A stretch of DNA of 64,000 nt. Source: Escherichia coli. GTDB taxonomy: Bacteria > Pseudomonadota > Gammaproteobacteria > Enterobacterales > Enterobacteriaceae. A program made the position numbers and the translations under genes. The notes beneath the pieces are model-generated. The model ran no database searches. It was not told the DNA's origin and worked only from the letters and a program-made list of their open reading frames with translations. The stretch lies in assembly GCF_003790525.1 (NCBI RefSeq), contig NZ_CP033635.1; one strand, given 5' to 3'. This document shows positions 1-10,348 of the stretch, piece after piece (the first letter of the stretch is position 1; each line of letters opens with the position of its first letter).

Positions 1-99
1 ATGTATATGCAGGAATATCTTTATTCAATCAGAAATCATCGTTATACCGCCACGATGCTTCAGCATATTGCTGAAGATCGTGACGGGACGAGTCATTAA
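1..99 (+). CDS. Possible 3' end of a convergent LysR-type regulator gene (ygfI in K-12 gene order); partial, 5' end outside window
   Basis: Frame 1 is open from base 1 to a TAA at 97-99, overlapping the scpC stop on the other strand; K-12 gene order places ygfI convergent to scpC. Only 32 codons visible, so weak. Confidence 0.35.
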   Translation: MYMQEYLYSIRNHRYTATMLQHIAEDRDGTSH

Positions 100-1574
100 C
101 CCAGCATCGAGCCGGTTGCAATTAAATTACGGTGTAAATCAAAGACGTGGCTAAGATCGTGGTGAATATGTCCGCCGGGCGCATTTTCCAGATAGCGATG
201 CAGATAATCCCGATACATAGGATGTGCACAATTATCAATGATGGTGCGGGCGCGTTGAAGCGGGGAAAGACCACGCAGATCGGCGATCCCTTGTTCGGTG
301 ATGATCACTTTGACGCTGTGTTCGCTGTGATCAACATGGCTGCACATTGGCACGACGGTTGAGATCTTGCCTTCTTTAGCAATCGACGGGGCCATAAAGA
401 TCGACAGATACGCGTTGCGTTCAAAATCACCGCTGCCACCGATGCCGTTCATCAGATCGACCCCGGCTACGTGCGTTGAGTTGGCATGCCCGTAAATATC
501 AAACTCCAGGCCGACGTTCAGAGCGATGACGCCCAGACGACGGATGATTTCCGGGTTATTGGAAATTTCCTGCGGACGCAACACAATGCGGCTGGCAAAG
601 TAATCCATATTGTCGTAAATCTTGCGCAGGGAATCGGCCGAGATAGTCAGGCTGGAGGCGCTGGCCCCGCTGATTTTGCCCGTTTCCAGTAAATGCACCA
701 CCGATTCCTGTAGCACTTCCGAATACATCATGAACGGAGGAATTTCCGGGTTTTCCCCTAGTCGCGCCATGACTGCATTATTGATATTGCCCACGCCACT
801 TTGCAGCGGCAGAAATTCCGGCGGAATACGCCCATGCGCCATTTCCTGCAACAAGAACGTGACCACGTTATCGGCAATCTGCTGGCACATGGGATTTTGC
901 TTATCCAGCATATTACCGGCGTCAGGCAAGTTGGTTTCCACGACGGCGACAATCTTTTTCGGATCGATTTGCACATAGCGGGTACCGACGCGATCCATTG
1001 CATGGAAGATCGACACGCTATTGCGCCGCGGTGGCGCGCCAGGAATCACAATATCTGCCAGTTCTGCAACGCGCGGATCGTGATAGTGATTAAGTTCAAT
1101 GATCACTTTCTTCGCTCGCAGCAGCCAGGTCGGCGCATTACCGTTCCCGCTGGTTAACCAGACTCGACCATCCGGTGCCAGTGCCGATGCTTCAATGACG
1201 GCAACATCAATGTCGCCGAAGAAACCGTAATTGACCATTTGCGCCACTTCGCTCAAATGCAGGTCAACGAAACTCACCGCGCCCTGATTGATCTTTTTAC
1301 GTAAACCGGACGATGTTTGATATGGCGCACGCCAGGAAACAGCATCGGCGTCAGAAAGTACATCGTCAGCGGCGGCGCTGATTGACGCCCCCGTCAGCAG
1401 GCGAATTTGATACGGCTTTTTGGCCTCATGCTGTTCGTTAGCTCTGCGGGCAATCGCGGTGGGTAAGGCTTTCGGCGAACCCGCTGGGGTAAAGCCGCTA
1501 AATGCCACCATGTCGTTATGCTGGATAATTTCTGCCGCTTCATCGGCGGTCATCCTTGTCCACTGAGTTTCCAT
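96..1574 (-). CDS. scpC: Propionyl-CoA:succinate CoA transferase (acetyl-CoA hydrolase/transferase family)
   Basis: 492-aa ORF, METQWTRMTADEAAEII N-terminus; last gene of the sbm-argK-scpB-scpC arrangement. Confidence 0.9.
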   Translation of the reverse strand: METQWTRMTADEAAEIIQHNDMVAFSGFTPAGSPKALPTAIARRANEQHEAKKPYQIRLLTGASISAAADDVLSDADAVSWRAPYQTSSGLRKKINQGAVSFVDLHLSEVAQMVNYGFFGDIDVAVIEASALAPDGRVWLTSGNGNAPTWLLRAKKVIIELNHYHDPRVAELADIVIPGAPPRRNSVSIFHAMDRVGTRYVQIDPKKIVAVVETNLPDAGNMLDKQNPMCQQIADNVVTFLLQEMAHGRIPPEFLPLQSGVGNINNAVMARLGENPEIPPFMMYSEVLQESVVHLLETGKISGASASSLTISADSLRKIYDNMDYFASRIVLRPQEISNNPEIIRRLGVIALNVGLEFDIYGHANSTHVAGVDLMNGIGGSGDFERNAYLSIFMAPSIAKEGKISTVVPMCSHVDHSEHSVKVIITEQGIADLRGLSPLQRARTIIDNCAHPMYRDYLHRYLENAPGGHIHHDLSHVFDLHRNLIATGSMLG

Positions 1575-1597
1575 TTTAACTCCTTCGTTCGCAGGGA

Positions 1598-2383
1598 TTA
1601 ATGACCAACGAAATTAGGTTTACGTTTTTCGAGGAAAGCGTTCATCCCTTCCTGGTAATCTTCACTGTCATAAACCGCGCGGCGCATCCCCTGAATACGT
1701 TCAAATTCATCGGAGTTCATGGTGTGCGCTTCGCCCAGTACACGCAGCTCTTCTTTGATAACGGCAATGGCTAACGGTGCTTTCTCAGAGATGTGGTGCG
1801 CCATTTGTAAGGTGAAATCTTCCAGTTCTTCCACTTCCACAACATGGTTGAGGATGCCGACAGCCAGCGCGCGCTGGGCGGTGATTGGCGAAGCGGTAAA
1901 AATCAGCTCTTTGACAATGTGGAAGCCCGCGTCGCGGGTCAGATTGTGAATGCCGACCAGGTTATACGGGACACCGAGGTTTACAGGTGTCATTGAGAAG
2001 GTTGAGGTACTGGCGGCGATAATCAGATCGGAACTCATGATCATTTCAAATGCGCCACCCCAAACACTACCTTCCACCATCGAAATGATCGGTTTCGGGA
2101 ATTTTTGGATCATGCGGGTGATTTGACGCAACGGATCATCATAGGAGAGCGGATCGCGACCGCCAGACGGCAGTTCGTGAATATCGTGACCTGCGGAGAA
2201 GACTTTGGATCCACTCGGCGCGCGCAAAATGATACAGCGAATTTCCGGCCGGTTGAGATCGCTTAATGCCTGCATAAGATCATCAATAAAGACTTTACTT
2301 AAGGCATTAAGTTTGCGGCCATAGTTAAACTCAATGACCGCCACTTTGTTGATAGTGACAACGTTCACATACTGATAAGACAT
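1598..2383 (-). CDS. scpB: Methylmalonyl-CoA decarboxylase (crotonase/enoyl-CoA hydratase fold)
   Basis: ORF track gives 275 aa from an upstream ATG; trimmed to MSYQYVNVVTINKVAVIEF (261 aa), the start I recall for ScpB. Confidence 0.85.
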   Translation of the reverse strand: MSYQYVNVVTINKVAVIEFNYGRKLNALSKVFIDDLMQALSDLNRPEIRCIILRAPSGSKVFSAGHDIHELPSGGRDPLSYDDPLRQITRMIQKFPKPIISMVEGSVWGGAFEMIMSSDLIIAASTSTFSMTPVNLGVPYNLVGIHNLTRDAGFHIVKELIFTASPITAQRALAVGILNHVVEVEELEDFTLQMAHHISEKAPLAIAVIKEELRVLGEAHTMNSDEFERIQGMRRAVYDSEDYQEGMNAFLEKRKPNFVGH

Positions 2384-2393
2384 AAAAATTCCT

Positions 2394-3389
2394 TTAATCA
2401 AAATATTGCGTCTGGATAAATTCACTGAGCTGTCGCAGGCCGGTGCGCGGTGAGAGCGTATTGTTTTTGACCGCTAAAAGCGTCTGGCGGTAATAGCGAT
2501 CGAAATCTTCATTCGCGAACAGGTGATTCAGTACTTCTTCTTCGGTTTGTTTACGCAGCCATTCCACCGATTGTTGTTGCCGCACTTGTTGTAATCGACC
2601 ACTGGCAGTTAGCGCGGTTTTGAAGTCGATGATGGCGTGCCAGATCTCATCGATTCCACGTTTTTCCAGTGCGCTACAAGTCAGAACCCGTGGCTGCCAT
2701 TCGTCGTATTTACGTCGCAGAATATGCAGGGCACTCTCGTACATATGCTGGGCAATGGCGACATTGGTATGGTTATCGCCATCGTCTTTGTTGATAACGA
2801 TCAGATCTGCCACTTCCATCAGCCCCTTTTTAATGCCCTGCAGATCATCGCCGCCACCGGCAATTTGCAACGAGATAAAACAGTCCACCATGCGGGCGAC
2901 TTCCGTTTCCGACTGTCCGACGCCAACCGTTTCGACAATCACTACGTCATAACCCGCCGCTTCGCATAACAGCATTAATTCCCGCGCTCGCTGACTGGCA
3001 CCGCCCAGATGGCCGGAGGAGGGTACCGGGCGAATAAACGCCGCCTCGGCACGCGCAAGGTCATTCATGCGGGTTTTATCCCCGAGAATGCTACCGCCAG
3101 TGACCGGGCTGCTGGGATCGACCGCAATAACCGCAACCTTTAATCCCTCACGAATCAACAACATGCCAAAGGCTTCAAGAAAGGTACTTTTCCCCGCGCC
3201 GGGTGTGCCGGTAACACCCAGTCGCAGGGCGTTACCACAGAACGGCATAATGGCATCAAGCAGTTGCGTACTTAGCGCCTGATGACGCGGGTGACGGCTT
3301 TCCACCAGCGTCATGGCCTGGGCGAGCGTGGCACGCTCACCCTGACGTAAGCGGCGAATACTTTCTGCCAGCGTGGCTTCATTAATCAT
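2394..3389 (-). CDS. argK: MeaB/ArgK-type GTPase, methylmalonyl-CoA mutase accessory protein
   Basis: 331-aa ORF with P-loop [11 protein letters not shown]; positioned between scpA and scpB. Confidence 0.9.
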
Positions 3390-5526
3390 GATGCTGGCTT
3401 ATCAGATTCAGTACGTCGCGCACGCTGTCGAGCATAGGCGTACCTGGACCATAAATCGCCGCCACGCCGCGCTCCTGCAGGAAGGCGTAATCCTGCGGCG
3501 GAATGACGCCACCCGCGACCACGCAGATATCTTCGCGTCCCCATTTTTTCAGCGCTTCGACCAGTTCCGGGATCAGCGTTTTATGACCGGCAGCCAGTGA
3601 AGATGCGCCCACTACGTGAACGTCGTTTTCTACTGCCAGGCGGGCGATCTCTTCAGGTGTAGAGAACATCGGGCTTAAATCTACGTCGAAACCGAGATCG
3701 GAATAGGCGCTGGCGATCACTTTCGCGCCGCGATCGTGCCCATCCTGGCCCATTTTGGCGATCAGAATGCGCGGACGACGACCATTGTCGGCAAGGAACT
3801 GCTCCGTTTGCGCAACAATGGCATCGAACTCGGTGGCCGATTTCTCAGACTGATGATAGCTTTGCGCAATCACGCCGGTAACACACTGGCTTGGCACCAG
3901 ATAACGGTCGAAAGCGGCTTCCAGCGCATCGGAAATTTCACCCAGGGTGGCGCGAACGCGAGCGGCATTAACAGCGGCAGCCAGCAGGTTTTCGTTATGC
4001 TGTGCGGCGTGAGTCAGGGCGTTCAACGTGGCGGTTACGGCAGCATCATCACGGGTGGCGCGAATGCGTTCCAGTGAAGCAATCTGCTCGTTACGCACCA
4101 TCACGTTGTCGATCTCAAGTACATCGGTTTCGTCTTCGTGATCCAGTTTGTACTTGTTGACACCAACGATGACACGCTTGCCCTGGTCGATCAGCGACTG
4201 TTCGCGCGCGGAGGCCTCTTCGATCATTCGTTTTGGCAGACCTGCTTCGATCGCTTTCGCCATGCCACCGGCTTCGTCGATCTGTTGGATAATGGCTCTG
4301 GCTTGTTTGACGATTTGATCGGTCAGCGATTCAACGTAATAGGATCCGGCCAGTGGATCGACGGTGCGGCAGAGTTCTGATTCTTCCTGAATGATGATCT
4401 GGGTATTGCGGGCAATGCGTGCTGAGAAATCGGTAGGCAAACCAAGCGCTTCATCAAAGGCGTTGGTATGCAGTGACTGAGTACCGCCCAGCGTTGCAGC
4501 CAGTGCTTCAATGGTGGTGCGGATAACGTTGTTATATGGATCCTGTTCAGTCAGGCTCCAGCCTGAGGTCTGGCAGTGGGTACGCAGCGCCAGTGATTTC
4601 GGATCCTGTGCGCCAAATCCACTGACCGCTTCGCTCCATAAATAACGTGCCGCACGCAACATGGCGACGTTCATAAACAGATCCATGCCAATGCCGAAGA
4701 AGAACGACAGGCGAGGAGCGAAGTCATCAATTTTCAGCCCGGCGGAGATTGCTGCTTTGATGTACTCAATCCCATCAGCGAGCGTAAATGCTACCTGTTG
4801 CACGCAGTTGGCACCCGCTTCACCCATATGGTAACCGCTGATACTGATGGTATTAAATCGCGGCATGTTGCCGGAACACCAGGCGATGATGTCTGCGATA
4901 ATACGCATTGACGGTTTTGGCGGGTAAATATAGGTGTTGCGGCAAAGATACTCTTTGAGGATATCGTTTTGAATGGTGCCGGTCAGTTTATCGGGTGTAA
5001 CACCTTGCTCTTCTGCGGCGACAATATAAAACGCCAGTACTGGTAGTACTGCGCCATTCATGGTCATCGAAACCGACATTTTATCCAGCGGGATCTGGTC
5101 GAACAGGACTTTCATATCTTCCACGGTGTCGATAGCAACGCCCGCTTTGCCGACGTCGCCCGCCACGCGCGGGTTATCGGAGTCGTAGCCTCGGTGGGTG
5201 GCAAGGTCAAACGCAACGGAAAGACCTTTTTGCCCGGCGGCCAGGTTACGGCGATAAAAAGCGTTGGACTCTTTTGCTGTTGAAAAACCAGCATACTGAC
5301 GGATGGTCCACGGTTGGGCGGTATACATAGTGGCACGCGGGCCACGAACGTAGGGGGGCAAACCAGGAAGGGTACCTGTCACCTCCAGATTATCGAGATC
5401 GGCTTCGGTATACAGCGGCTTGATGGCGATCCCTTCCGCGGTTTGCTGAACCAGCGAGTCGACAGTTTTCTCCCGACGGCTCAATTCCTTGTTGGCAAGC
5501 TGTTGCCACTCCTGCACGTTAGACAT
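3382..5526 (-). CDS. scpA: Methylmalonyl-CoA mutase (sleeping beauty mutase), B12-dependent
   Basis: ORF track 721 aa; trimmed to [14 protein letters not shown] (714 aa). The 3' end overlaps the argK start by 8 nt. Confidence 0.88.
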
Positions 5527-5689
5527 TATTTGCTCCGTAAAACGCAATCAAAATGAGGGTATTTGCGCTTACGGTGAGCTTTTTACGTGGGTTTGTCGCC
5601 AGCAAAAAAAATGCATTCAGACGTCGTTTTTTGCCGCCTGAGATTTGTCTATTTTGTGATGTGATTCAAGGAATACAAAAAGAAGTGAG

Positions 5690-5716
5690 GATAACGCCTG
5701 ATATGTGCTATCAGGC
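5690..5716 (-). terminator. REP-like hairpin downstream of argP, possible terminator
   Basis: gcctgata-tgtgc-tatcaggc inverted repeat at 5696-5716, just 3' of the argP stop; no clean U-tract. Confidence 0.3.
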
Positions 5717-5729
5717 ATTATTTGATGGA

Positions 5730-6623
5730 TTAATCCTGACGAAGGACTTTGTGACCATAATCGAGCAACGCATCAGTGACTTTACGCATCATGCGGCTTT
5801 CAGGAGCAAAGCGGTGCCAGTAGAGCATCCGGCGTTGAAATAGCCCCGGCGTTAAGTCAATCAGTTCACCGCTGGCCAGTTCTTTCTCGATTTGCAGGTG
5901 CGGGATCATACAGCAGGTGGTGCCCTGGCGAGCAAGTTGTACGAACGCTTCTGAAGAATTAACGATATGGCACGGTACGCTGCCTGGGGGCAGATCGAAG
6001 TTTTGCTGCAAAAAGGCCTGGTGCATATCGTCAAGATGGTCAAAGGCGACCACAGGTGCTTTCAATAATGCCGAACGCGTTACGCCGTTAGGGAAATATT
6101 TTTCGGCAAACGGTTTTGAGCTGACGAACAGATAGTCAAGCGCACCGAGCTTATCGACAAGGCAACTCGGCAGCGCCTGATGTTGAATACTCACCGCGCC
6201 GACCACTTCGCCGCGGCGCAGACGTTCCTGAGTGCGGGTTTCATCTTCTACCTGCAAGTTGAGGCGGATAGGCGAATCAGCCAACACAGGAGCCAGCGCC
6301 GGAAGCAACCACGTCGCCAGACTGTCGGCGTTGACCGCCAGTGAAAGCAGCAGCGGAGTCGAACCGGTTTGTTCATCGCCCAGCCACTCTTCTTCCAGCA
6401 ACTCCACCTGGCGTAGCAGTGCCAGCAGTTTTTGCCCTTGTTCTGTCGGGCGCGGCGGTACGGTACGCACCAACAGCGGCTGCCCGAACATATTTTCCAG
6501 TTGCTTAATGCGCTGTGAGACGGCTGATTGTGTAATGCACAGCTTTTGTGCCGCGCGCTCAAATCCTCGTTCACGTATCACCGCATCCAGTGCCTGTAAT
6601 GTTCTGTAGTCCGGGCGTTTCAT
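5730..6623 (-). CDS. argP: LysR-family transcriptional regulator ArgP (IciA)
   Basis: ORF track 319 aa; trimmed to [28 protein letters not shown] (297 aa). HTH motif [12 protein letters not shown]. Confidence 0.85.
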
Positions 6624-7005
6624 TGCTGTTGTCTGCTCCTGGTAAATGCTTTTTCCTGCACTATGACACAATTTTGTGTCAGGTTGCATATACCGAAGCC
6701 GTCGGCGGGTAACATTTGTATCAATGGTTAAACGCGCAGCTTAAAAGATCAGGGATTTGCGCTATTGCATTTCGCTTAGCGACTTCGCGCCCTGGTTATG
6801 TTGAATGGCGTGGCGTTATTGCCTCTGTTCGCACCGTGGAGCGGCATACCCAGACCGTTGTATGCTTTATTTGCCGGGCGAAAGGGGATGCCCGCCATTG
6901 CGCGATATTTTATGGATGAGTTAACCACGCGGCTTGCCAACGGGGTCTGAATCGCTTTTTTTGTATATAATGCGTGTGAAATTTCATACCACAGGCGAAA
7001 CGATC

Positions 7006-9339: not shown

Positions 9340-9481
9340 GGTAAAGCCCTCACCGAAGCGAGGGCTTGAAGGAGAAGGGTTATGATGCGACTTGTCATCA
9401 TACTGATTGTACTGTTACTCATAAGTTTCCCAGCTTATTAACAGTCAGTCTCAGGGGAGGAGTCATCCTCCCTTACCCTTA
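9340..9481 (-). ncRNA. sibC: SibC-like antisense sRNA (antitoxin of the ibsC type I toxin-antitoxin pair); ends approximate
   Basis: Fully antisense to the ibsC mini-ORF; a sigma-70-like promoter on the minus strand (TTGACA, 17-nt spacer, TAATTT, plus-strand 9488-9516) and a minus-strand hairpin plus U-run near 9346-9365. K-12 places SibC (RygC) between serA and fau. Confidence 0.45.
9382..9441 (+). CDS. ibsC: Ibs-family type I toxin, 19-aa hydrophobic peptide
   Basis: ATG ATG CGA ... TAT TAA encodes MMRLVIILIVLLLISFPAY, preceded by SD gaaggaga; matches the Ibs toxin family pattern. Too short for the ORF track. Confidence 0.6.
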   Translation: MMRLVIILIVLLLISFPAY

Positions 9482-9487
9482 CTCACT

Positions 9488-9516
9488 AAATTAGGTTAAA
9501 GAATCAACGATGTCAA
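9488..9516 (-). promoter_or_regulatory. Candidate sigma-70 promoter for sibC
   Basis: Minus strand reads TTGACA-17 nt-TAATTT; predicted transcription start near plus-strand 9481. Confidence 0.35.
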
Positions 9517-10162: not shown

Positions 10163-10348
10163 AGGGAATCTCCGAGATGCCGCCGCAGGCTGTAACCCTT
10201 GAACCCTTGGTTCAAGGTGAATGTGTCGTCGCAGTTTTAAGGCTTCTCGGACGGACCGAGCATGCTCACCAACCGCGGAGCGCCACATTCTTGTGGTATG
10301 AAATATCGGCTCAGGGGACTGGCCCGCTTGCGAACATCTCAGAGAAAT
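10163..10348 (-). ncRNA. ssrS: 6S RNA (RNA polymerase sigma-70 holoenzyme regulator)
   Basis: Reverse complement reads AUUUCUCUGAGAUGUUCGCAAGCGGGCCAGUCCCCUGAGCC...GGCAUCUCGGAGAUUCCCU, which matches E. coli 6S RNA as I recall it; lies between zapA and fau. Ends within a few nt. Confidence 0.9.

Follow-up and report, generated by a model that had tools for sequence, protein, structure and literature searches.

What switches on the "sleeping beauty mutase" (Sbm) operon of Escherichia coli, which is described as having a weak or inactive promoter and hardly any expression (PMC3850637), and what has kept it intact? The stretch of E. coli DNA analyzed here (64,000 nucleotides, hereafter the window) almost certainly carries this chromosomal operon, scpA-argK-scpB-scpC, in complete and coding-competent form. 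The original prediction had called all four genes full length and intact from the letters alone, and the open reading frames, the sequence, protein family scores, the annotation of strain CM2 and a check for stop codons now agree on this point. It had also described the operon as poorly expressed, with its physiological trigger still open; this agrees with published work (PMC3850637, PMC5512728), being a statement from the literature rather than one that can be read from a sequence.

The four genes are all encoded on the minus strand, from 5526 down to 96, with argP on one side and srsR (ygfI) on the other (Table 1), and the open reading frame listing, the sequence itself and the RefSeq annotation of the 100%-identical strain CM2 concur on the gene calls. 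The range first given for the operon, 3382 to 1574, runs from the scpA stop to the scpC start, and thus brackets argK and scpB only and misses the full four-gene extent; the range proposed for the intergenic region upstream of scpA (5527-5729) proved exact. No internal stop was found in any of the four genes, and their products have the same lengths as in K-12. Two start codons of the mechanically derived reading frames (TTG at 5547 and GTG at 2425) were rejected as true gene starts.

Table 1 Coordinates of the genes and upstream elements at the Sbm locus, in window positions.
Feature	Positions	Strand	Remarks
srsR (ygfI/dhfA) 3' end, LysR-type regulator	1..99	+	clipped at window start; CM2 annotation
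scpC (ygfH), propionyl-CoA:succinate CoA-transferase	96..1574	-	492 aa
scpB (ygfG), crotonase-family methylmalonyl-CoA decarboxylase	1598..2383	-	ATG start, 261 aa
argK (ygfD/meaB), G3E-family GTPase chaperone of the mutase	2394..3389	-	331 aa
scpA (sbm), adenosylcobalamin-dependent methylmalonyl-CoA mutase	3382..5526	-	ATG start, 714 aa
argP-scpA intergenic region (203 nt), presumed control region of the operon	5527..5729	-	
Conserved block AAAAAGCTCACCGTA	5570..5584	-	
Near-invariant 16-nt element TTTTTTGCTGGCGACA	5594..5609	-	67 nt upstream of the scpA ATG
Inverted repeat GCAAAAAA-N15-TTTTTTGC	5602..5634	-	3' arm falls in the 16-nt element
Conserved block CTTGAATCACATCACA, CRP-site-like	5655..5670	-	TGTGA-N6-TCACA, 2 mismatches here, 1 in most other genera
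Hairpin GCCTGATA-N5-TATCAGGC just past the argP stop	5696..5716	-	sequence not conserved outside Escherichia
argP (iciA), LysR-type regulator, upstream neighbor	5730..6623	-	NF002964, 417.6 bits; CM2 annotation

The tight and overlapping junctions noted at the outset are directly visible in the sequence. The end of scpA and the start of argK share 8 nt (ATGATTAA, 3382-3389), an overlap retained in 45 of 46 loci from other taxa, while argK and scpB are separated by 10 nt containing AGGA, and scpB and scpC by 23 nt containing AAGGAG. At the far end, scpC overlaps the convergent srsR by 4 nt (96-99). To judge from the sequence, junctions of −8, 10, and 23 nt would permit a single transcript; that the genes form one poorly expressed unit is known from the literature (PMC3850637).

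Each of the four proteins scored above the curated cut-off of an NCBIfam equivalog or subfamily model, and these scores cannot be due to chance. ScpA reached 1252 bits against NF006944 (cut-off 876), also matched TIGR00641 and TIGR00640, and aligned over its full length to human MMUT (residues 6-707) and to the alpha chain of the Propionibacterium (P. shermanii) MCM. It combines the N-terminal substrate barrel and the C-terminal B12-binding domain of a mutase, the latter with the histidine ligand of the DxHxxG motif (residues 593-603; DGHDRG at residue 595). ArgK scored 495 bits against NF006958 (cut-off 329), matched PDB 2P67 (E. coli YgfD) with E=9.5e-218, and displays the features of MeaB/ArgK G3E GTPase chaperones, including a Walker A motif (GTPGAGKS) at residue 61 and NKDD at residue 200. 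The name "argK" is a historical misnomer, the protein being, by these matches, a MeaB-type G-protein chaperone of the mutase. For ScpB, the NF008506 score was 486.9 bits (cut-off 257) and the match to PDB 1EF8 covered 261 of 261 residues; the same protein (WP_000122080.1) is annotated in CM2 and four further strains. ScpC scored 751.7 bits against TIGR03458, the YgfH subfamily (cut-off 658.7), and 598.9 against the related ScpC equivalog NF053853 (cut-off 500), has homologs in PDB 2NVV and AarC (4EU3), and carries a GGSGDF motif at residue 379. No observation spoke against identifying the locus as the Sbm operon.

From these family assignments and the published K-12 enzymology, we infer a short cycle. 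ScpA, with adenosylcobalamin, would convert succinyl-CoA to (R)-methylmalonyl-CoA, with the ArgK/MeaB GTPase loading and protecting the mutase cofactor; the ATGATTAA overlap probably couples argK translation to that of scpA. ScpB would then decarboxylate methylmalonyl-CoA to propionyl-CoA, and ScpC would transfer the CoA to succinate, freeing propionate and regenerating succinyl-CoA, for a predicted net conversion of succinate to propionate and CO2. Mutase activity and the stereochemistry of its product have been published for K-12 ScpA, which is 99.3% identical to the ScpA found here (PMC5512728). Besides promoter strength, two limits on the pathway have been published. Exogenous B12 is required and has to be imported by E. 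coli (PMC3850637), and methylmalonyl-CoA epimerase is reported to be absent from this species, with ScpA yielding the R form and ScpB reported to take the S form (PMC5512728). Given this stereochemical gap, the cycle may not proceed in the simple form given above. Activity also needs B12 import plus, according to this one study, the epimerase that E. coli is missing.

Intactness of the operon is the common state in E. coli and does not distinguish the present strain. The locus is 100% identical to that of several sequenced strains, including CM2, and ~98% identical to K-12. Among 5,426 complete E. coli genomes, 79% carry the intact operon and ~21% a deletion of ~4.3 kb, the latter including ST131 and a derivative of Nissle 1917, so that the operon is evidently dispensable in some lineages. 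Finding a well-conserved, intact copy is ordinary, since most strains have one: this is a textbook Sbm operon, and its presence here is already known and adds nothing new. Beyond the species, all four genes keep their full length and colinear order in 46 loci, which represent ~10 genera of Enterobacterales (spanning Escherichia, Citrobacter, Salmonella enterica arizonae and diarizonae, the Klebsiella oxytoca group, Yokenella, Kosakonia, Yersinia, and Sodalis-like taxa), across which ScpA amino-acid identity ranged from 81 to 99%.

This distribution bears on the idea that the operon is a decaying relic, a cluster turning into pseudogenes that happens to be intact here and is free of selection. 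The deletion in about a fifth of genomes, a frameshifted meaB in strain ECOR29, and the description of the operon as silent (PMC3850637) would fit such an account, but it is largely refuted already and we consider it highly improbable. Compared with O157:H7, dN/dS was 0.049 for scpA, 0.054 for argK, 0 for scpB, and 0.029 for scpC, meaning that the operon is under strong purifying selection wherever it is retained (0-0.05 in all four genes); ScpB is identical in six strains (the present one, K-12, and four others); and neither the 46 full-length colinear loci nor the conservation of the upstream control region would be expected of a relic. Read in the light of this purifying selection and cross-genus conservation, "cryptic" should not be taken to mean decaying. 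Nor is "silent" absolute: overlapping scpC and ygfI transcripts are reported from 50% or more of 58 RNA-seq samples (PMC12288877), and a preprint reports a phenotype on deletion of the native operon (10.64898/2026.01.15.699719).

The operon is presumably controlled from the region between argP and scpA. Its 203 nt show no difference from O157:H7 and two from K-12, though dS is ~0.09, and 3864 of 5425 genomes match them at 99% identity or more. The 16-mer TTTTTTGCTGGCGACA occurs exactly in 33 of 47 regions upstream of scpA and with up to two mismatches in 42 of 47 (~10 genera), in a single copy per locus. Both arms of the overlapping inverted repeat are conserved in sequence, with no compensatory changes seen, and the repeat pattern has 2 matches in the window against 0.21 expected, a modest enrichment only. 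Further upstream, the block CTTGAATCACATCACA is kept across Escherichia, Citrobacter, Salmonella, Klebsiella, and Yokenella. We retain it as a conserved block only, not as a CRP site, since a consensus match of this quality does not stand out from chance (38 such matches in the window against 28 expected).

Known promoter and RNA signals were scarce in this region. Scanning positions 1-7000 for sigma-70 consensus promoters gave nothing on the minus strand ahead of scpA, and the hexamers that can be picked out by eye there are poor (TTGCTG-17-AAAGCT and GCGACA-17-CACCGT); patterns for sigma-54, sigma-32, and FNR did not fit either. Neither a cobalamin riboswitch (RF00174) nor any other Rfam family was detected in the leader, the whole-window scan at gathering thresholds returning only 6S and SIB RNA, and RNAalifold on a 14-genus alignment gave a single weak A-U stem, lacking compensatory pairs and covariation; an RNA element in the leader was accordingly rejected. 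No mapped scpA promoter was found in the papers searched. Near-invariant blocks shared across genera, together with the lack of recognizable sigma-70 hexamers, make the region look like a control region bound by a transcription factor. Low laboratory expression is best explained by an activator-dependent promoter, a promoter type that rests on the absent consensus match and not on a mapped transcription start.

Alternatively, the operon might have no promoter of its own and be transcribed only by read-through from argP. The latter lies 203 nt upstream on the same strand, the hairpin behind it, probably a weak argP terminator by its sequence, lacks a directly following T-run, and no sigma-70-like promoter was found. 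However, argP does not adjoin the operon in Yersinia, Kosakonia, Superficieibacter, or Sodalis-like loci, and both the blocks and the 16-mer persist in the first three of these and in RU39B, where the upstream neighbor is likewise a gene other than argP. Conservation within the spacer is moreover confined to the 160 nt proximal to scpA, the argP-proximal part not being conserved, as one would expect if the region served to control the operon specifically. We therefore regard read-through as improbable. ArgP itself shows no amino-acid difference from O157:H7.

A candidate for the factor is the LysR-type regulator SrsR (YgfI/DhfA), which might control the operon through the upstream inverted repeat and 16-mer, with a co-inducer missing from laboratory media. 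Its gene adjoins scpC convergently in 47 of 47 loci of other taxa, despite at least five different flanking contexts (argP and yggE; alpha-amylase and AcpH; fructosamine kinase and YniB; flavin reductase and a 3-hydroxyisobutyrate-dehydrogenase-like gene; Kup and FlgT), and most characterized LysR regulators control neighboring genes (PMC9068703). The inverted repeat has TTTTGC cores resembling the published SrsR box TCAGATTTTGC, and the reverse complement of its first arm, TCGTTTTTTGC, fits that box at 8 of 11 positions, where accepted targets fit at 6-9 of 11. This match is not significant alone, and carries no statistical weight because sites fitting at 8 or more of the 11 positions turn up 3.2 times per kb of the window. 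Direct surveys of SrsR binding also point elsewhere: gSELEX lists 10 targets and does not mention the scp genes (PMC9181523), nor are they mentioned among the other targets reported from ChIP-exo and RNA-seq (PMC9068703), and in the papers searched we found no published link between ygfI/srsR and the scp genes. The 16-mer never occurs upstream of srsR itself, and srsR is convergent with the operon, whereas LysR regulators are typically divergent from their targets. An internal stop interrupts srsR in O157:H7 beside an intact operon, and srsR is intact in operon-less Nissle-type strains; as each of these keeps one of the two intact, srsR and the operon were not lost together. No co-loss was observed: SYNB1934 and HH45 have an intact srsR, IS1 truncates the gene in MB51, and a stop codon interrupts it in both ST131 and O157:H7. 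Direct control by SrsR is thus possible, although we would sooner expect it to fail than to hold.

The convergent arrangement suggests yet another explanation, namely that the operon is repressed after initiation by srsR transcription running into scpC, through excludon-type interference or through antisense RNA and RNase III. The 4-nt coding overlap leaves no space for a terminator between the two genes, in 42 of 46 loci the two coding regions run into each other at their 3' ends, and scpC-ygfI belongs to the MG1655 "excludome" on the basis of the transcript overlap mentioned above (PMC12288877). But this excludome comprises 165 convergent pairs and is defined by transcript overlap (PMC12288877), overlapping stop codons are common between convergent genes and may reflect genome compaction only, and an effect at the 3' end would leave low scpA transcription at the 5' end unexplained. 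We consider it unlikely that such interference holds the operon down.

A more speculative reading, which we hold to be less likely than not, is that the four scp genes and convergent srsR form a five-gene module inherited and moved as a unit. In that case SrsR, or another factor recognizing TTTTTTGCTGGCGACA and the inverted repeat upstream of scpA, would be the missing switch, turning the operon on when it senses a metabolite related to the pathway. If this reading were true, the published SrsR/DhfA targets would be secondary.

These comparisons make the old question of the operon's switch more tractable, by pointing to a compact, deeply conserved control region with a 16-mer at 5594-5609. Knowledge of the operon, of its enzymes, and of its weak expression dates from about 2000, and metabolic engineers use the operon routinely. 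What can now be added is that the control region contains no B12 riboswitch and no consensus promoter, and that strict synteny names srsR/ygfI as a candidate regulator. Cryptic is not the same as unselected: the genes are strongly constrained, yet have been lost in B2-lineage strains such as ST131 and Nissle, which is of relevance to the propionate and B12 metabolism of gut E. coli strains.

Among known systems, the closest is the K-12 sbm operon itself (b2917-b2920), with the same four genes, order, lengths, and 8-nt overlap, argP upstream, and srsR/ygfI convergent downstream. Differences are allelic only (5 residues in ScpA, 3 in ArgK, none in ScpB, and 3 in ScpC), and the two substitutions in the 203-nt upstream region, at window positions 5692 and 5569, both fall outside the conserved blocks. 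For the enzymology of the K-12 Sbm proteins, the source is Haller et al. (2000), as cited in PMC5512728. The B2-lineage deletion allele, seen in ST131 strain 5506 and the Nissle-derived SYNB1934, still has srsR and the final 153 nt of scpC at one end and, at the other, the 5' part of scpA with the 203-nt spacer and argP, but has lost ~4.3 kb corresponding to about 250-4507 of the window, so that pseudogene fragments remain; the ST131 allele additionally lacks 4547-4599 and 5208-5235.

More distantly, the Wood-Werkman pathway of propionibacteria shares the succession from succinyl-CoA through methylmalonyl-CoA to propionyl-CoA and the recycling of CoA by a transferase. Propionibacteria use a biotin transcarboxylase in place of a simple decarboxylase and synthesize their own B12. 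They also have a methylmalonyl-CoA epimerase, which E. coli lacks (PMC5512728), and no epimerase gene is encoded in the Enterobacterales scp cluster at the compared loci. With the human MMUT-MMAA and Methylobacterium MCM-MeaB systems, the likeness lies in the mutase and its chaperone: ScpA matches MMUT, including the DxHxxG cobalamin ligand motif, and ArgK is a MeaB/MMAA homolog with the G1 and G4 motifs present. Unlike in those systems, the mutase-chaperone pair of Enterobacterales is linked to a CoA-transferase and to a decarboxylase of the crotonase type that needs no biotin, and flux would therefore be pulled towards propionate.

The sleeping beauty mutase operon of this E. coli strain is intact, as originally predicted. 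All four scp genes lack internal stops and have their K-12 lengths, with five residues differing from K-12 in ScpA, three each in ArgK and ScpC, and none in ScpB, and the gene coordinates tabulated below are those that RefSeq annotates in strain CM2, a 100% match across these 6.8 kb. The tight junctions that had been noted are visible in the sequence: scpA shares 8 nt with argK (ATGATTAA), argK and scpB are separated by 10 nt, and the 23-nt gap between scpB and scpC includes an AAGGAG Shine-Dalgarno sequence. A 4-nt overlap joins scpC to srsR. The original prediction gave the argP-scpA intergenic range exactly, while the span it assigned to the operon, 1574-3382, runs between genuine boundaries (scpC start and scpA stop, respectively) that bracket only argK and scpB.

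Genes and conserved elements of the scp region and its neighborhood (window coordinates)
Feature	Coordinates	Strand	Basis or remark
srsR/ygfI 3' end	1-99	+	convergent with scpC
scpC	1574-96	-	ORF listing and sequence
scpB	2383-1598	-	ORF listing and sequence
argK/meaB	3389-2394	-	ORF listing and sequence
scpA	5526-3382	-	ORF listing and sequence
argP-scpA spacer	5527-5729		203 nt
Shine-Dalgarno sequence GGAG	scpA-proximal part of spacer		conserved across genera
Block AAAAAGCTCACCGTA	5570-5584		conserved across genera
16-mer TTTTTTGCTGGCGACA	5594-5609	-	conserved across genera
Inverted repeat GCAAAAAA-N15-TTTTTTGC	5602-5634		conserved across genera
CRP-like block	5655-5670		conserved across genera
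Hairpin	5696-5716		argP-proximal, unconserved across genera
argP	6623-5730	-	ORF listing and sequence of window 1-6800
argP-rpiA spacer	6624-7005		variable among strains
SIB RNA (partner of ibsC type I toxin)	9366-9516	-	Rfam
6S RNA (ssrS)	10165-10348	-	Rfam

The two RNAs are expected in that part of the E. coli chromosome. The argP-rpiA spacer, in which many genome matches end (at 6797 or ~6676), carries a yqfE pseudogene or a 186-231-nt LysR-fragment ORF in K-12 and others, and no annotation in the strain identical to the window.

Intactness is the common state in E. coli rather than a peculiarity of this strain. Of 5426 complete E. coli genomes, 5425 matched the operon region, but at least 80% of it lay in one place in only 4273 (79%), most of the operon being absent from the remaining ~21%. 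Of the 5435 matching places, one is in a plasmid-classified record. Strains with the deletion, among them ST131, SYNB1934 (derived from Nissle), and a CSF isolate, retain argP, the spacer, a 5' portion of scpA (~0.9-1.0 kb), and the final 153 nt of scpC. Among the compared loci L003/L008, L058, L059, and L060, ST131, SYNB1934, and HH45 share the junction that retains these last 153 nt; ST131 lacks window ~250-4507 and, through two extra small deletions within the scpA remnant, also 4547-4599 and 5208-5235. Because the srsR allele of HH45 is of B1 type, recombination may have spread the deletion allele. A separate deletion in MB51 is bounded by IS1 and also truncates srsR, and meaB is frameshifted in ECOR29 (L007 2894-3888). 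Internal stops in srsR were seen in an O157:H7 strain with an intact operon (L004 1-599) and in ST131, where the operon is deleted (L003 1703-2599). Where retained, the cluster is not decaying, given low dN/dS values relative to O157:H7 (scpA 0.049, argK 0.054, scpB 0, scpC 0.029; dS 0.06-0.10), a scpA dN/dS of 0.04-0.16 over ten strain pairs, and one and the same ScpB protein in six strains (the window strain, K-12, and four others; the window protein shares its accession with CM2).

Beyond E. coli, a ScpB query against one genome per species yielded 48 loci, and in all 46 that were long enough the four genes were colinear and essentially full length (amino-acid identity 81-99% for ScpA, 59-95% for ArgK, 77-100% for ScpB, and 72-99% for ScpC). 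The carriers are Escherichia albertii, E. whittamii, Citrobacter, Salmonella enterica subsp. arizonae and diarizonae, the Klebsiella oxytoca group, Yokenella, Kosakonia, Superficieibacter, environmental Yersinia, and Sodalis-like taxa. At 45/46 loci scpA and argK keep their 8-nt overlap, which argues for conserved translational coupling of these two genes. Three loci bear other labels (L031, a 'Bacillota bacterium' MAG; L046, Martelella alba; L051, Aeromonas sp. RU39B) with Enterobacterales-type scp genes, and in L031 also an argP of 96% amino-acid identity; these public records are probably contaminated or mislabelled.

The gene order extends to a fifth member. srsR adjoins scpC convergently in 47/47 loci from other taxa (L009-L056), spanning ~10 genera and at least five flanking contexts, and the 3' coding ends of the two genes overlap in 42/46. 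Upstream of scpA and beyond srsR lie argP and yggE in Escherichia, Citrobacter, Salmonella, Klebsiella, and Yokenella, an alpha-amylase gene and AcpH in Superficieibacter, fructosamine kinase and YniB in Yersinia, flavin reductase and a 3-hydroxyisobutyrate-dehydrogenase-like gene in Sodalis, and Kup and FlgT in RU39B. Since srsR is always adjacent while the outer flanks differ, this synteny identifies scpA-argK-scpB-scpC plus srsR, a module of five genes, as the conserved unit.

The scpA-proximal ~160 nt of the spacer harbors near-invariant blocks across genera. Within E. coli, the spacer shows no differences from O157:H7 and two from K-12 despite a synonymous divergence of ~0.09, and 71% of genomes carry it at 99% identity or better. 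Of 47 scpA-upstream regions, 33 have an exact 16-mer and 42 have one with at most two mismatches, always a single copy per locus; the element is retained where argP is not the neighbor and absent only from the Sodalis-like clade. In this Sodalis/Acerihabitans-like clade (L045-L048, L054) a block of its own, TGAAATAAAAATTAT, is conserved upstream. A promoter scan found no sigma-70-like promoter upstream of scpA, an Rfam scan of the whole window found no cobalamin riboswitch or other family in the leader, and the leader alignment showed no covariation. With neither an Rfam family nor covariation, the conserved elements look like binding sites at the DNA level, belonging to what may be an activator-dependent promoter.

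With synteny this strict, SrsR/YgfI is the obvious candidate to bind this control region. The TTTTGC core of the published SrsR box (TCAGATTTTGC; PMC9181523) is common to both inverted-repeat arms, and one arm matches the box at 8 of 11 positions, within the 6-9/11 of accepted targets; because the frequency of such matches here is 3.2 per kb, this one does not count as evidence by itself. The scp genes are not mentioned in the gSELEX (PMC9181523) or ChIP-exo and RNA-seq (PMC9068703) studies of SrsR/DhfA, and losses of srsR and of the operon are uncoupled across the strains compared. We consider regulation of the operon by SrsR/YgfI possible but rather doubtful. The scpC-ygfI pair is among the overlapping convergent transcripts of the published E. 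coli 'excludome' (PMC12288877); this listing offers a second, weaker mechanism and shows some transcription of the region. According to a 2026 preprint (10.64898/2026.01.15.699719), deletion of the native operon in a dnaK mutant changes a host phenotype.

The poor expression cited in the original prediction agrees with reports that operon expression is very low and that B12 must be supplied (PMC3850637). An epimerase may also be missing, since ScpA produces R-methylmalonyl-CoA and the decarboxylase reportedly uses the S form (PMC5512728). The operon itself is already known and ordinary; what the comparison adds is a sharply delimited control element that is conserved and a candidate regulator named by synteny, both directly testable at the bench. 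The enzymatic interpretation is supported by all four proteins, which exceed curated NCBIfam cut-offs: ScpA as methylmalonyl-CoA mutase (1252 vs. 876 bits), ArgK as MeaB GTPase (495 vs. 329), ScpB as methylmalonyl-CoA decarboxylase (487 vs. 257), and ScpC as a YgfH-subfamily succinate CoA-transferase (752 vs. 659). ArgK has Walker A and NKDD motifs and matches structure 2P67 (E. coli YgfD); the protein is a MeaB-type chaperone, and the name 'argK' is a historical misnomer. ScpB matches structure 1EF8 across 261/261 residues, ScpC has homologs in structure 2NVV and AarC, and ScpA, which keeps the cobalamin-ligand motif, aligns nearly end to end with human MMUT.
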